Shown: piece after piece, positions 8,715 through 23,553 of the stretch
Layout: every line of letters starts with the position of its first letter
How positions within the stretch are numbered: position 1 is the stretch's first letter
Source of the DNA: a virus
Taxonomy: Duplodnaviria > Heunggongvirae > Uroviricota > Caudoviricetes
Direction: 5' to 3' (one strand)
IMG/VR virus record: IMGVR_UViG_3300045988_007239
Coordinates: 1-25,013 of that record
Length of the DNA: 25,013 nt
Program-made: the position numbers and the translations under genes
Notes under the pieces: generated by a model
Seen by the model: only the letters and a program-made list of their open reading frames with translations
What the model was told of the DNA's origin: nothing
The model's database searches: none

Positions 8715-8751
8715 TTGACATTTAACGCATAAATTATTACCTTTTGGGTAA
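8715..8751 (+). promoter_or_regulatory. promoter-operator module driving the tRNA insert
   Basis: TTGACA (8715-8720) followed by perfect TTACC-ttttg-GGTAA (8737-8751); the stretch acgcataaattattacc nearly duplicates the pL-like promoter at 19351-19367. Confidence 0.45.
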
Positions 8752-9073: not shown

Positions 9074-9150
9074 GTGGCATTAGCTCAGTTGGACAGAGCA
9101 ACCGCCTTCTAAGCGGTTGGTCGCAGGTTCGAATCCTGCATGCCGCGCCA
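9074..9150 (+). tRNA. tRNA-Arg (anticodon UCU)
   Basis: 77-nt cloverleaf folded by hand: acceptor gtggcat/atgccgc (one G-U), D-arm gctc..gagc, anticodon stem accgc/gcggt with loop cuUCUaa, T-arm gcagg-ttcgaat-cctgc, encoded CCA end. Confidence 0.9.
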
Positions 9151-18273: not shown

Positions 18274-18504
18274 TCATGAGTAGAAGAAGTATGCCAGTTC
18301 TGCTTTTGAGCGCAGCCATTGTCTTGTTTTACAGGCTTTAAAAAGCCCATTCATCAATACCTTACCTGGCATTTTGCGCTTACCTGTTAAGTGAGTCTGG
18401 ATATAGTGACTCGTCGTTCCGGCTTCCTGTGCGAAGGCTTCACGCTCATCCGGAGTAAGTGCAAGCCAGTGCTTTTTGAAATCGAAATGTCCGTTATCGC
18501 TCAT
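18274..18504 (-). CDS. Cro/YdaS-like HTH regulator
   Basis: 76-aa ORF divergent from the repressor gene; helix-turn-helix-like segment; classical cro position. Confidence 0.65.
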   Translation of the reverse strand: MSDNGHFDFKKHWLALTPDEREAFAQEAGTTSHYIQTHLTGKRKMPGKVLMNGLFKACKTRQWLRSKAELAYFFYS

Positions 18505-18658: not shown

Positions 18659-19243
18659 ATGAAAAGTATCCAGGACGTCCGCAGGCAAAATCTCAACGAC
18701 TTGATCGACCGTGAATTCAATGGTGTTCAGACGCGGATGGCAGAAAAACTTGGAACTCAGGCAAATCTGGTAAACCGCTGGGCTCTTGGCAAGAAGGTTA
18801 TCGGCGACCAGGTTGCACGAAAAATTGAAGCTGCCGCCAATAAACCCCGTAACTGGCTTGATATCGATCGCTCGCTTTCTCAGGAAGGTTTTCAGCCTGT
18901 CGGCCCGAGCGATATAGGTCAGCTGGCGGCTCACAACCTGGAACGCTGGATGAGCGAAAGCCGCGACCTTTCAACGCAGGGAAAACTACACCGCGCATCC
19001 GGCGTCGCCCAGGTGACAATCAGCCGCCTGTTAAACAATGAGGTCAGCGTTTCCATTTCCACCCTGGAGAATGTTGCATCCGCATTCGGGCGTCACGGCT
19101 ATGAATTACTGATTCACCCGCACGACCCTGCGACCATCAACTATGATCGCTCGCGCTACGCATTGTTACCCGAAACCGAGAAAGCAAAGATCGAAAGTTA
19201 CATTGAATTTGTCATCAACCAGAACGAAAAAAACAAACAATAA
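18659..19243 (+). CDS. phage repressor with two HTH (XRE-type) domains, no LexA-like peptidase domain
   Basis: 194 aa; two HTH-like segments (LGTQANLVNRWALGK and SGVAQVTISRLLNNEV); no Ser/Lys peptidase motif region; followed by a strong terminator. Confidence 0.75.
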   Translation: MKSIQDVRRQNLNDLIDREFNGVQTRMAEKLGTQANLVNRWALGKKVIGDQVARKIEAAANKPRNWLDIDRSLSQEGFQPVGPSDIGQLAAHNLERWMSESRDLSTQGKLHRASGVAQVTISRLLNNEVSVSISTLENVASAFGRHGYELLIHPHDPATINYDRSRYALLPETEKAKIESYIEFVINQNEKNKQ

Positions 19244-19263: not shown

Positions 19264-19288
19264 AAGCCGCCTTCTGGCGGCTTTTTTA
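19264..19288 (+). terminator. intrinsic terminator after repressor gene
   Basis: GCCGCC-ttct-GGCGGC stem followed by TTTTTT. Confidence 0.7.
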
Positions 19289-19300
19289 TTGCCTATTCGA

Positions 19301-19377
19301 TTACCTAATGGGTAATTTTTTTAACTCATATCTATTGACATCAAACCAGATACGCATAATTATTACCTCAACGGTAA
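19301..19377 (+). promoter_or_regulatory. pL-like promoter with two operators
   Basis: Perfect TTACC-taatg-GGTAA (19301-19315); TTGACA (19335-19340), 17-nt spacer, AATTAT; perfect TTACC-tcaac-GGTAA (19363-19377) at the predicted transcription start. Confidence 0.6.
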
Positions 19378-19396: not shown

Positions 19397-19549
19397 ATGC
19401 AGTGGAAAATCATCAACGGTTGGTACTGCGTTACTGCATGCGGATTCATGAGCTGGAAGTTCCGCACCTTACAGGAAGGCATTAAGTGGGCTTTCGTCAG
19501 CAAAGAAGCTCGCGATGTGGCCAACGATAACGAGATATGGGAGGGCTGA
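19397..19549 (+). CDS. small hydrophobic protein (50 aa), first gene of early-left operon
   Basis: Hand-translated MQWKIINGWYCVTACGFMSW...; GAGGT RBS 8 nt upstream; stop 2 nt before the next gene; below track cutoff. Confidence 0.35.
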   Translation: MQWKIINGWYCVTACGFMSWKFRTLQEGIKWAFVSKEARDVANDNEIWEG

Positions 19550-19551
19550 TA

Positions 19552-19851
19552 ATGAACGTTAATCAGCAGAAAAATCTTCAAAAAATCATGCTGGCATTCG
19601 ACAAGGACTACCGCCTGTCAGAACAGCTATATGACCGACAAGTTGAACTGATCGAGAGCATCCGGCTTCATCAACTGGCCTCAACTTTTGACGCTGTAAC
19701 AGGCAAAGGAGTTCGCCAGGAAGTGCTGGAGGCAGCTAAAGACAGCCCTGAGTTCGAAGAACTTATGGATGCCTACCGGCGCGAGGCAATAGCAATTATC
19801 GCCCGCTGGGATCTGGCGGATCGGATTGATGGGCAGAGGGAAGCGGCATGA
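19552..19851 (+). CDS. hypothetical protein (99 aa)
   Basis: Start set at ATG 19552 with GGGAGGG RBS, not the track's 19537; stop overlaps the exonuclease gene start. Confidence 0.6.
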   Translation: MNVNQQKNLQKIMLAFDKDYRLSEQLYDRQVELIESIRLHQLASTFDAVTGKGVRQEVLEAAKDSPEFEELMDAYRREAIAIIARWDLADRIDGQREAA

Positions 19852-20669
19852 AACCGGGAATTTATTTCGACATCAGCAACGAAGACTACCACGCCGGTGA
19901 CGGCGTGAGTAAGTCGCAACTGGACATGGTTGCCAAGAATCCGGCGCTTCTTAAATGGGTTCAGGCAGCACCAGAAGACGAAGAGAAAAAGTCTGCACTG
20001 GATATGGGAACCGCATTGCACTGTCTGCTTCTGGAGCCTGGAGAATTCGACAAACGCTTCATTGTTTCACCGAAGTTCGATCGTCGGACGAAACAAGGTA
20101 AAGCTGACGAAGAAGCATTTCTTCGTGATGTAGCGGATATGGGGATTACGGTACTTGATGCCGAGCAGTGGCGGAAACTGGAGCTGATGCGTGATAGCGC
20201 AATGGCTCACCCGGCGGCACGCTGGATGCTGGAAGCACCTGGTTACTGCGAAGCATCAATGTACTGGAATGATGAAGAGACTGGTGAGTTGTGCCGCATT
20301 CGTCCAGACAAATGGCTGAACGAGCACAACGTGATCGTCGACGTGAAAAAGGTTGCAGATATGGATCGTTTTGCACGCCACATCGAGGAATTCCGCTACC
20401 ACGTGCAGGACGCAATGTACCGCGAAGGAGCGATGAGGGTTACTGGTCAGTCGCATGGTTTTTTCTTTCTTGCCGTGAGCGAAAGCATTGATTGTGGTCG
20501 GTATCCGGTACGCGTGTTCGAGCTGGATGCGCCGGATGTCGATGCCGGGCACGCTCTGTTCCGCCGGGATCTGAATACCTATCACGAATGCCGCATCAAC
20601 GATGAATGGGGCGGCGTGGAAATTATTAAACGCCCTGACTGGGCACGTAAACAGGATATGTACGTATGA
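19848..20669 (+). CDS. recE: RecE-like exonuclease (exodeoxyribonuclease VIII catalytic domain only)
   Basis: 273 aa; GIYFDISNEDYHAG ... SKSQLD ... GTALHCLLLEPGEFDKRF ... CRIRPDK ... DVKK closely resembles the RecE C-terminal nuclease domain as I remember it. Confidence 0.8.
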   Translation: MKPGIYFDISNEDYHAGDGVSKSQLDMVAKNPALLKWVQAAPEDEEKKSALDMGTALHCLLLEPGEFDKRFIVSPKFDRRTKQGKADEEAFLRDVADMGITVLDAEQWRKLELMRDSAMAHPAARWMLEAPGYCEASMYWNDEETGELCRIRPDKWLNEHNVIVDVKKVADMDRFARHIEEFRYHVQDAMYREGAMRVTGQSHGFFFLAVSESIDCGRYPVRVFELDAPDVDAGHALFRRDLNTYHECRINDEWGGVEIIKRPDWARKQDMYV

Positions 20670-21547
20670 GCAATGATATCGCAATCACATCACAACCAGG
20701 CGCAACTGTAGGTACTGCTGCGGCAATCTTCAGCCCGGAGGGCATGAATCAACTGGTGCGTTTCGCGGAGTTGATGTCACAAAGCAAAGCGACTGTACCG
20801 AAACATCTTGAAGGCAAACCTGCCGATTGTCTGGCGGTGACCATGCAGGCGGCACAGTGGGGAATGAACCCTTTCGCCGTGGCGCAGAAAACGCATGTGG
20901 TAAACGGAACGTTAGGCTACGAAGCACAGTTGGTAAACGCGGTCGTATCCTCTTCCAGCCTGCTAGCGACACGCCTGAATTATCGCTGGAGCGGTGACTG
21001 GTCGAATGTTAACGGCAAAACAGATAAATCACCGAATCTGACGGTAACTGTGTCAGCAGTTCTTAAAGGAGAAGCAGAACCCCGTGAGCTTACCATCAGT
21101 ATGGCGCAAGCCGGAGTGCGTAACTCTCCATTGTGGGAACAGGATCCGCGCCAGCAGCTTGCCTATCTTTGCACGAAACGATGGGCTCGCCTGCACGCTC
21201 CTGATGTACTTCTCGGTGTTTACACCCCTGACGAATTACAGGAAACGGCACCGCGCGTTGAGCGAGACATTACTCCGCAAACGACTACTGCTGCGGCAAT
21301 GAACAGTCTGATCAACGCTAAACCAGTGAAAAAGCCTGATGAGCAAACGCGTAAAGCGGATAGCCGTGATCCAGAAGAAATGCTGATGGCCTTTACCAGC
21401 GCAGCGATGAATTACAGCACTGTCTCCGAACTGGATAAGGCTTACAAATACATTGCACAAAAACTTTCAGATGATGACGAACTGCTGGCAAAAGCCACCG
21501 ACGTTTACAGCGTTCGTCGGGAAGAATTAAACGAAACATCTATGTAA
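20666..21547 (+). CDS. single-strand annealing protein, RecT/Red-beta (Bet) family
   Basis: 293 aa; QWGMNPF ... ERDITP and C-terminal W-x-RL pattern resemble lambda Bet; coupled to the exonuclease gene. Confidence 0.75.
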   Translation: MSNDIAITSQPGATVGTAAAIFSPEGMNQLVRFAELMSQSKATVPKHLEGKPADCLAVTMQAAQWGMNPFAVAQKTHVVNGTLGYEAQLVNAVVSSSSLLATRLNYRWSGDWSNVNGKTDKSPNLTVTVSAVLKGEAEPRELTISMAQAGVRNSPLWEQDPRQQLAYLCTKRWARLHAPDVLLGVYTPDELQETAPRVERDITPQTTTAAAMNSLINAKPVKKPDEQTRKADSRDPEEMLMAFTSAAMNYSTVSELDKAYKYIAQKLSDDDELLAKATDVYSVRREELNETSM

Positions 21548-21596: not shown

Positions 21597-21845
21597 ATGA
21601 AAGGTGCATTAGGTAAGAAGGAACTCCTGGCGGTGGTGCCACTGTCATGGAGCACTATCGACCGTATGGAGCGCGCAGGGGAATTTCCTAAACGCTGGTA
21701 TATCACCGATAAACGCTGCGCATGGAACCGTGATGAAGTTGAGCGTTGGCTTGATGAACGTCAGGCAGCAAGCCCGGCAGAGTTCCAGGGTAAAAAACCT
21801 CCTGTTCAGCAACGTGTATATCGTCCTGTGAGCAACGCGGCATGA
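21597..21845 (+). CDS. AlpA-family DNA-binding protein (excisionase/regulator-like)
   Basis: 82 aa; S-x-STI-x-R ... G-x-FP ... W-x-x-x-EV-x-x-WL pattern typical of AlpA/Vis-type proteins. Confidence 0.7.
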   Translation: MKGALGKKELLAVVPLSWSTIDRMERAGEFPKRWYITDKRCAWNRDEVERWLDERQAASPAEFQGKKPPVQQRVYRPVSNAA

Positions 21846-21954
21846 GTGTGCTGCTAAGGCACTGGAGCAAATGGTCAGGATGGTACTTATTCCTGGCCTC
21901 TGTTTCAGCATGGCTTTATCTGCTGGCATTAATTTTCAGAGAGGGTTGGATTAA

Positions 21955-22254
21955 GTGAGAAAGTTAAGCCGACTTGAAAAATATCACATGAACAAGGTTT
22001 CAATGCGCAGCCCTTCAAAGGTTGTTGCCGTTACTCCTGCGGCGATAGAGATCGAAAAACGCGCGATTGAAAGAGAGAAAAAAGGGCAGTTCCGCATTGC
22101 CGCCCACCTTTGGCTTCAGTGTATGGATGTTGCTTCTGGTGATGTTGAACGTGCAAGGATCGCGGTTCGCAGGGACCAATGTATCACAAAAGGTAACGGC
22201 CTTCGCCGTGGCGACTATAGCGGCATAGGATGTTGTGGGGTGGTTTATGACTAA
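21955..22254 (+). CDS. PerC/ANR-like small regulator
   Basis: 99-aa ORF (GTG start per track); RIAAHLW ... ERARIAVRRDQC resembles the PerC-family motif; assignment from memory. Confidence 0.45.
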   Translation: MRKLSRLEKYHMNKVSMRSPSKVVAVTPAAIEIEKRAIEREKKGQFRIAAHLWLQCMDVASGDVERARIAVRRDQCITKGNGLRRGDYSGIGCCGVVYD

Positions 22255-22897
22255 GAAATACACACTAATCTATGCAGATCCACCCTGGGTATACCGGGAC
22301 AAAGCCGCAGATGGTAATCGCGGTGCCGGTTTTAAATATCCGGTTATGAGTGTGCTGGATATCTGCCGCCTTCCTGTGTGGGATTTGGCCGATGAAAACT
22401 GTCTGTTGGCCATGTGGTGGGTGCCAACACAACCACTCGAAGCACTAAAAGTTGTTGAAGCCTGGGGATTCCGTCTGATGACGATGAAGGGCTTCACGTG
22501 GATAAAATGTGGTAGTCGACAACCAGATAAACTGGTTATGGGTATGGGACACATGACTCGCGCCAATAGTGAAGATTGCCTGTTTGCGGTAAAGGGAAAA
22601 CTACCTACGCGCATTAATGCAGGGATCGTTCAGTCATTTACCGCACCGCGGCTTGAGCATTCAAGAAAGCCAGATATCGTTCGTGAAAAACTTGTGCAAT
22701 TATTAGGCGATGTTTCTCGCATTGAACTGTTCGCCCGCCAGACGTCTCATGGCTTCGATGTTTGGGGTAATCAGTGCGAAGACCCGGCAGTGCAACTACA
22801 CCCTGGATACGCGTTGGATATCGGCGGATTAACAAATGCATTCAGCAATGCTCCGCTGTCACCAACAGACAACCAGGGGCGGGAGCGTGCAGCATGA
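22247..22897 (+). CDS. MT-A70 family N6-adenine DNA methyltransferase
   Basis: IYADPPW motif near N-terminus; start taken at ATG 22247 (track uses GTG 22235). Confidence 0.8.
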
Positions 22898-23553
22898 ACC
22901 TATATCAACGCATCAATGGCGCTGACTGGTGCAATATCTTCGTCGTCGGCGATCTGCATGGGTGCTACACGCTGCTGATGAACGAACTCGACAAAGTTTC
23001 ATTCGACCCGGCGCGCGATTTGCTTATTTCCGTTGGTGACCTTGTTGACCGCGGCGCTGAAAACGTCGAATGCCTGGATTTGATTACTATGCCGTGGTTC
23101 CGAGCTGTTCGTGGCAACCATGAGCAGATGATGCTGGATGCACTGGTCAACGGCGGAAGTTTCGGACATTGGATGTCAAACGGCGGTGGATGGTGGCACC
23201 AACTTGATTCTGAGCAGGATGTGCAACTCAAATACCTTCTGCCAAAGGTTACCAACCTCCCGATGATTATCGAACTGGTTACCGGCAATAAGAAGGTCGT
23301 CATCTGCCACGCAGACTACCCGCACAACGAATACGCATTCGATAAGCCAGTACCGGAAGAAATGGTGATATGGAATCGTGAGCGGGTTAGCGACGCGCAG
23401 GACGGTATTGTCTCGGAGATAACCGGTGCCGATTTGTTCATCTTCGGTCATACGCCAGCACATCACCCACTGGTGTATGCAAACCAAATGTACATCGACA
23501 CCGGCGCAGTGTTCTGCGGAAATCTGACGCTTACCAAAGTCCAGGAAGGATAG
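22894..23553 (+). CDS. Ser/Thr protein phosphatase (lambda PPase-like metallophosphatase)
   Basis: GDLHG, GDLVDRG and GNHE motifs; start at ATG 22894, overlapping the methyltransferase stop (ATGA); the track's N-terminal extension is rejected. Confidence 0.85.

Follow-up and report, generated by a model that had tools for sequence, protein, structure and literature searches.

A candidate distant relative of lambda Gam encoded ahead of a short RecE-type exonuclease and a Bet-like annealase in a Uetakevirus prophage of Escherichia coli

The DNA analysed here, called the window throughout, is the 25,013-nucleotide stretch of IMG/VR virus record IMGVR_UViG_3300045988_007239, a Uetakevirus (epsilon15/phiV10-like podovirus) prophage of Escherichia coli. 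It carries a compact recombination module of four open-reading frames (ORFs). By profile comparison, the 99-residue product of one of these, orf99, seems to be distantly related to lambda Gam, which inhibits the host nuclease RecBCD; the kinship had not been recognised before. This protein is the new element of the module, the RecE-like exonuclease and annealase that follow it being an ordinary, known pair. The four ORFs are:

19397 to 19549, + strand: orf50, 50 amino acids (aa), phrog_898
19552 to 19851, + strand: orf99, 99 aa, phrog_856
19848 to 20669, + strand: RecE-type exonuclease, 273 aa, PF12684
20666 to 21547, + strand: RecT/Red-beta superfamily annealase, 293 aa, PF03837 and phrog_561

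The window matches the phages HEMP4, TL-2011b, ZX5, and PAS61 at 97–98% identity across 81–87% of its length, and the 2.3-kb recombination region is 98–99% identical in phiv142-3 and others and ~ 94% identical in phiV10. The recombination module was matched in 565 of 5,426 complete E. coli genomes (~ 10%). GenBank and genome records label the two large genes as exonuclease VIII/RecE-like (or PD-(D/E)XK nuclease) and RecT family recombinase, and the same annotations are found in viable phages at 94–99% identity. Annotations of the pair exist already for phiV10, TL-2011b, and hundreds of E. coli genomes, so it is not new in itself. Both small genes are entered as “hypothetical protein” in phiV10, TL-2011b, and related records, and a literature search returned no paper tying epsilon15/phiV10-type phages to a Gam-like gene. 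Screening with PADLOC showed no resemblance to known defence proteins for any of the four proteins.

The relationship of orf99 to Gam was assessed by comparing an alignment of 16 orf99-family sequences (A3) with an alignment of 15 GamS sequences (A4). Using hhalign, the two profiles aligned with a probability of 85–86% (E ~ 5e-6, score 35.5) and in co-linear fashion, with residues 31–86 of orf99 against 33–90 of GamS and, under a looser setting, 16–95 against 15–97. Reversed-profile controls scored 19.3–19.7, and the best of 200 column-shuffled Gam profiles scored 19.5 (median 11.1). Leaving out the divergent members one at a time gave scores of 32.6–37.0 with the register unchanged, and six divergent members aligned singly with Gam in that same register, one of them (P0086) with a probability of 85.6% on its own. 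A HMMER profile search of 177,635 PDB sequences placed the Gam chains 5MBV and 2UUZ at E 0.068, again in this register, and the Pfam Gam family (PF06064) was the lowest-E family for any member of the orf99 family (E 0.0042). The second match of P0086 was PHROG 259, “gam-like host nuclease inhibitor” (E 0.016). When a Gam hidden Markov model was run over 2,321 ORFs called in all six frames of the window and of 14 loci, orf99-family ORFs took ranks 2, 3, 6–11, 13, 17, 21, and 22, behind lambda Gam. Gam alone stands out in these comparisons, as 25 other small early proteins from lambda, Rac, and P22 gave hhalign scores of 14.1 or less against orf99. The families are also alike in length (97–102 aa versus 98 for GamS) and isoelectric point (pI; 4.6–5.2 versus 4.8–5.0), GamS being an active 98-residue dimer that blocks RecBCD's DNA-binding site (PMC5218532). 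By profile–profile comparison with controls, the orf99 family thus appears remotely homologous to Gam and, as with Gam, its members are predicted to be acidic helical proteins of ~ 98 aa encoded directly upstream of phage recombinases.

The reading frame of orf99 opens at an ATG at 19537, which would give 104 aa, and the ATG at 19552, preceded by the Shine-Dalgarno sequence GGGAGGG, gives the 99-aa form and is the start used by all homologues. The protein is acidic (pI 4.9), all-helical by prediction, and belongs to a PHROG without assigned function; it has no family match in Pfam, NCBIfam, or PADLOC. The family is narrow: the 52 clusters from a word-indexed search all shared 71% identity or more along the full length, 1.84 billion representatives searched exhaustively with HMMER yielded only 32 members, and a scan of species genomes found three loci, in Klebsiella, Citrobacter, and Erwinia dacicola. 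All Uetakevirus relatives have orf99 upstream of the RecE-like gene, and in five of the five divergent members (32–41% identity) the orf99-type gene overlaps the start of a recombination gene. The gene directly downstream is RecE-like (PF12684) at loci L009, L010, and L012, a YqaJ/lambda-Exo-like exonuclease at L013, and a RecT-family gene at L011, so that orf99 is genomically locked to recombination genes. The gene order at L009, namely KilR, orf100, exonuclease, and annealase, runs parallel to kil-gam-bet-exo of lambda. Between the same genome pairs orf99 evolves much faster than recE (35–52% versus 75–92% identity), and fast evolution has been noted for RecBCD inhibitors (PMC3784561).

Several observations weigh against a Gam assignment. 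The window protein and its close relatives (at least 71% identity), taken alone, give a noise-level, off-register alignment with Gam, so the assignment depends on transitivity through the divergent members. No Gam match in any library reaches a curated threshold, and the window protein has no match to Pfam Gam at the gathering score (25 bits), the best family member standing at E 0.0042. As the two families share an acidic, helical character, their profile scores may be inflated, although the reversed-profile control speaks against this. The AlphaFold2 model of orf99 is weak (predicted local distance difference test, pLDDT, 67), and fold searches gave generic helical hairpins only, with no match to Gam. 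Avoidance of Chi is a tendency of phages whose RecBCD inhibitors are known (PMC3784561), and the window shows no such avoidance, with 2 Chi sites versus 0.89 expected, counts that are too small to weigh much. The activities given here for orf99, the exonuclease, and the annealase are, moreover, predicted from their sequences. Because of these weaknesses, we put the chance that orf99 acts as a RecBCD inhibitor only slightly above even. That phrog_856 as a whole might form a divergent Gam clade of RecBCD inhibitors, moving with RecE-type, YqaJ-type, or RecT genes across Enterobacterales phages, is a wider proposal for which we consider the balance level.

Other comparisons were made and set aside. 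Alignments to Gam from single sequences or shallow alignments gave low probabilities and one conflicting register and were dropped for the deeper, controlled alignment. A relationship of orf99 to RacC, which occupies the same place in Rac, was rejected at an hhalign probability below 1%. Neither orf50 nor orf99 showed similarity to lambda Kil, cIII, Ral, Ea10, orf60a, or orf63, to Rac KilR, YdaE, YdaF, YdaG, RalR, or RcbA, or to P22 Abc1, Abc2, Arf, or Kil; for the anti-RecBCD proteins Abc1 and Abc2 of P22, hhalign probabilities were 0.7% or less with both small-ORF families.

The same data can also be read to mean that orf99 is a recombination accessory with a target other than RecBCD, acting in exonuclease–annealase coupling or in recruitment of single-stranded-DNA-binding protein or the replisome, its likeness to Gam being spurious or a matter of shared acidic helical shape. 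The stop/start overlaps that lock orf99 to exonuclease and annealase genes fit a physical partner as well as they fit a Gam analogue, and the absence of Gam from the structural-search matches and the sub-threshold score of every single-library Gam match are in keeping with such a role. The partner gene, however, changes family (RecE-like, YqaJ-like, or RecT) while orf99 stays, which makes a common host factor a likelier target than one specific partner, and in phages BUCT711 and Tyrion another small gene separates orf99 from recE. A spurious likeness also fits poorly with a Gam match that runs co-linearly, recurs from member to member, and scores far higher than the reversed and shuffled controls. 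We therefore consider an accessory role unlikely, though the strongest of the alternatives, and retain the proposal of a divergent Gam-like protein.

The exonuclease and annealase identities, taken together as a pair, are close to certain, their activities being predicted. The sequence-only reading of this DNA had proposed that the exonuclease is the catalytic C-terminal domain of RecE only (~ 273 aa), and this is borne out by a full-length alignment with residues 595–862 of Rac RecE (49% identity, E 3e-91), by a match to the crystallised RecE C-terminal domain 3H4R (E 7e-78), and by coverage of positions 606–873 of the 877-position NCBIfam exonuclease VIII model NF007259. The protein scores 80 bits against PF12684 (cut-off 26) and lies far below the cut-off of the full-length exonuclease VIII equivalog (313 versus 1269 bits, NF007259). 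Its residues H58, D154, D165, and K167 align with H652, D748, D759, and K761 of RecE, which we take to be the RecE active site, so the catalytic residues are retained. Neither small protein of the module was related to the N-terminal region of RecE by hhalign. Short DUF3799-type exonucleases beside RecT genes are a known, typical arrangement (PMC8093625), and a RecE truncated to start at residue 588 is recombination-proficient with RecT (PMC3945230).

The annealase, whose gene overlaps the RecE-like gene by 4 nt, scores 110.3 bits against Pfam RecT (PF03837; cut-off 24), a model on which lambda Bet scores 115.6 and Rac RecT 188.9 bits, and matches phrog_561 at E 7e-145. No NCBIfam equivalog or PDB sequence matched it. 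BLASTP gave E 0.001 for Bet and 0.6 for RecT, and in hhalign a profile of seven annealase sequences aligned with Bet over 149 columns (probability 74%, E 3e-5) and with Rac RecT at a probability of 4%. By these measures the annealase belongs to the RecT/Red-beta superfamily and has lambda Bet, more than Rac RecT, as its neighbour; its likeness to either subfamily is a remote profile similarity that falls short of close, equivalog-level membership. The term “Bet-like” used in the sequence-only reading is, therefore, fair at the level of the superfamily, given the PF03837 match and the preference of BLASTP and hhalign for Bet over RecT. The module pairs a RecE-type exonuclease with an annealase that leans towards Bet. 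One extra A in an A-run (CAAAACAGG versus TAAACAGG), ~ 25 nt ahead of the recT ATG, fuses RecE and RecT into a single 586-aa protein in phiV10 and its close kin (L002:3549–5309, compared with window 20630–20720). In this fused protein, the middle of RecT comes from another mosaic segment, longer by ~ 20 residues in total.

The first gene, orf50, encodes a conserved small protein of unassigned function that is predicted to be soluble and is, by its conservation, a real gene. It matches phrog_898 (E 2e-38), has 29 homologues in which the N-terminal 25 residues (MQWKIINGWYCVTACG...) are nearly invariant and two Cys are invariant, shows ratios of nonsynonymous to synonymous polymorphism (pN/pS) of 0.22–0.37, and is usually the first gene past the promoter. 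No match to orf50 was found in Pfam, NCBIfam, or PADLOC, and its AlphaFold2 model is unreliable (pLDDT 54). The product had been described as hydrophobic from the sequence, a description that does not hold, as its grand average of hydropathy is −0.29, its best 15-residue Kyte-Doolittle mean is 1.1, and it has no membrane-helix-like stretch. A further suggestion, that the two small ORFs occupy the position of Gam and Kil, survives for one of them: orf99 has the remote Gam similarity and is locked to recombination genes, while orf50 is unlike Kil, with hhalign probabilities of 0.3% or less against lambda Kil, P22 Kil, and Rac KilR, and is also unlike cIII and Arf. Enterobacter phage Tyrion (L006 ~ 1914–2063) has a clear, unannotated homologue of orf50 (MQWKIINGWYCVTACG...), across whose DNA the Tyrion record annotates an opposite-strand ORF (gp39).

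The four ORFs proposed from the sequence are all present on the + strand, encoding 50, 99, 273, and 293 aa, and they are tightly packed, with a 2-nt gap between orf50 and orf99 and ATGA stop/start overlaps at 19848–19851 and 20666–20669. This packing suggests coupled translation and matched amounts of the proteins. Each protein matches a PHROG family (E 2e-38 to 7e-145), pN/pS is below 1 for the four ORFs in all comparisons, and all four are kept in phages and prophages of Escherichia, Salmonella, Klebsiella, Enterobacter, and Citrobacter. On this evidence from sequence conservation, all four are real genes and not chance ORFs. Upstream of them the following features were found:

18659 to 19243, + strand: repressor-like protein, 194 aa, with two helix-turn-helix (HTH) domains (Pfam HTH_3 at 1e-9, YdaS-like N-terminal HTH, phrog_8 transcriptional regulator)
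19264 to 19283, + strand: terminator-like hairpin between the repressor-like gene and the operon, with an 8-bp stem of 6 G-C pairs followed by a T run
19301 to 19315: operator-like palindrome TTACCTAATGGGTAA, upstream of the −35 hexamer
19335 to 19363, + strand: near-consensus sigma-70-type promoter, TTGACA-17 nt-AATTAT (10/12 matches)
19363 to 19377: second operator-like palindrome TTACCTCAACGGTAA, adjoining the −10 hexamer

The TTGACA hexamer is kept at the equivalent position in relatives from Klebsiella phages and metagenomes, and the phiV10 record annotates a rho-independent terminator at the position matching the hairpin. The palindrome TTACC-N5-GGTAA, with one mismatch allowed, occurs 11 times in the window against 0.38 expected, at 8737, 11863, 11881, 16239, 16301, 18204, 18541, 18589, 19301, 19363, and 24855. 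Among these, 16239/16301 and 19301/19363 are pairs spaced by exactly 62 bp, and 62-bp pairs recur in related phages with different spacers. The 19301/19363 palindromes flank the operon promoter on both sides, and the 62-bp pair at this promoter is kept, with varying 5-nt spacers, in eight loci (L001–L003, L006–L008, L010, and L012), which are from TL-2011b, phiV10, phiv142-3, Tyrion, two Klebsiella phages, and two metagenomic relatives. The palindromes look like a genome-wide operator set for one phage regulator and are predicted to be operators for a phage repressor; the operon would then be silent in the lysogen. A likely candidate for the protein that binds them is the 194-aa double-HTH protein, the counterpart of which is labelled putative repressor in phiV10 and phiv142-3. 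Its YdaS-like HTH at the N-terminus and HTH_3 at the C-terminus are separate domains, and a Cro-like 76-aa gene (18274–18504, − strand) is divergent from it.

The start of the operon is a variable cargo slot. An extra 319–344-aa coiled-coil gene (phrog_1376, function unassigned, with no match in Pfam or PADLOC) lies between orf50 and orf99, at the slot corresponding to 19549/19552 of the window, in phiv142-3 (L003:2256–3290), L010 (264–1244), and L012 (4034–4993). Klebsiella phage BUCT711 and phage Tyrion have, instead, an 84-aa or a 45-aa gene separating orf99 from recE. The annealase gene is followed downstream, in the same orientation, by genes for an AlpA-like protein, a 38-aa membrane peptide, a PerC-like protein, an MT-A70 methyltransferase, and a metallophosphatase, and then by an integrase on the opposite strand. 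The 38-aa ORF (21842–21958, + strand) overlaps the end of the AlpA-like gene and has a strongly hydrophobic stretch (Kyte-Doolittle mean of 1.9 over 19 residues); the phiV10 and Tyrion records enter its counterpart as a membrane protein, and this ORF, not orf50, is the hydrophobic small product of the operon. The calcineurin-like metallophosphatase (22894–23553, + strand; PF00149, E 1e-15), between the MT-A70 methyltransferase and the integrase, is replaced in TL-2011b and phiV10 by a small DUF1382 gene, marking another variable slot at the end of the operon. Elsewhere in the window, a tRNA-Arg with anticodon TCT (9074–9150, + strand; Rfam 69 bits, ARAGORN) lies amid phage structural and late genes.

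A variable stretch between promoter and recE, with its coiled-coil gene and the extra small genes of BUCT711 and Tyrion, is also what would be expected if orf50 and orf99 were host-takeover or anti-defence cargo unrelated to recombination that merely shares the early operon, as many small genes of the lambda early-left operon do. Both genes lack curated annotation and orf99 evolves fast, which would suit such cargo. Yet orf99 stays beside recombination genes in unrelated backbones, including L009, which has a lambdoid immunity region (S24 repressor and KilR) and no TTACC/GGTAA operators, and the Gam similarity suggests a recombination-linked host target for orf99. For orf50 a cargo role may still hold. 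We regard the cargo explanation for the two genes as improbable, more so than an accessory role in recombination. A module decaying without function in a cryptic prophage, as with the silent recET of Rac, is a very improbable reading. The module does sit in a chromosome-borne prophage and relatives carry the frameshift-type RecE-RecT fusion, but its ORFs are all intact, the catalytic residues are kept, pN/pS is well below 1, and plaque-forming phages match more than 80% of the window's length at 97–98% identity.

The explanation that best accounts for the region as a whole, and that we consider moderately probable, is a repressor-controlled, three-function cassette with a Gam-like orf99. The region would be the start of an early operon transcribed from the promoter at 19335–19363, silent in the lysogen and presumably switched on at induction or infection. 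As a divergent Gam-like protein, orf99 would supply the first function. The 273-aa RecE-type PD-(D/E)XK exonuclease would then resect double-strand ends in the 5′ to 3′ direction, and the 3′ single strand would be loaded with the 293-aa Red-beta/RecT-superfamily protein, which would anneal this strand to complementary DNA. Such a cassette would be complete and lambda-Red-like but assembled from different parts.

The useful result is a testable function for orf99, a widespread “hypothetical” gene. If the proposal is true, this prophage family carries a self-contained cassette of inhibitor, short RecE, and Bet-like annealase that would be a candidate for recombineering, and the very narrow Gam family is extended. 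It would also mean that an unrecognised RecBCD inhibitor is present in ~ 10% of complete E. coli genomes, and a common prophage-borne inhibitor of this kind would be one more protein with the potential to trigger or evade defence systems that guard RecBCD. The RecET operon has been stated to appear without a Gam equivalent (PMC4381043); contrary to that usual statement, some natural RecET-type operons would carry their own. The conserved operator pairs, in turn, offer a simple handle on gene regulation in Uetakevirus.

Among known systems, the module is closest to the Uetakevirus early operons of phiV10 (PhiV10p37-39), TL-2011b (gp06-09), and epsilon15 (gp34-37), which have the same genes in the same order at 94–99% nucleotide identity, phiV10 and its close kin differing in the 586-aa RecE-RecT fusion and the mosaic RecT middle. 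With RecE/RecT of Rac it shares an exonuclease that is 49% identical to the RecE C-terminal domain with the active-site residues aligned, and an exonuclease gene that lies ahead of, and overlaps, the annealase gene. It differs from Rac in that the ~ 590-residue N-terminal region of Rac RecE is missing from the 273-aa protein, in that Rac RecT is no close match of the annealase (BLASTP E 0.6, hhalign probability 4%), and in that RacC, upstream of recE in Rac, is unrelated to orf99. The module resembles lambda Red in having three functions, the Gam-like one predicted, in one early operon for which we infer repressor control, with a remotely Bet-like annealase and, directly upstream of the recombinase genes, a remotely Gam-like orf99 of the size and charge of GamS. 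Unlike lambda Red, its exonuclease is RecE-type (PF12684) and not lambda Exo/YqaJ-type, its order is inhibitor, exonuclease, annealase as opposed to gam-bet-exo, and orf99 lies below the Pfam Gam threshold. A further parallel is the Plu2934/Plu2935/Plu2936 system of Photorhabdus, whose exonuclease is 70% identical to lambda Exo and in which the similarity of Plu2934 to Gam is confined to the Gam N-terminal helix (PMC4381043). There, as here, a small unannotated protein with weak similarity to Gam, found by HHpred in the case of Plu2934, is encoded upstream of an annealase/exonuclease pair, and in the Photorhabdus system a Gam-like recombineering effect has been demonstrated, as Plu2934 strongly boosts recombineering with its Red-like pair (PMC4381043).

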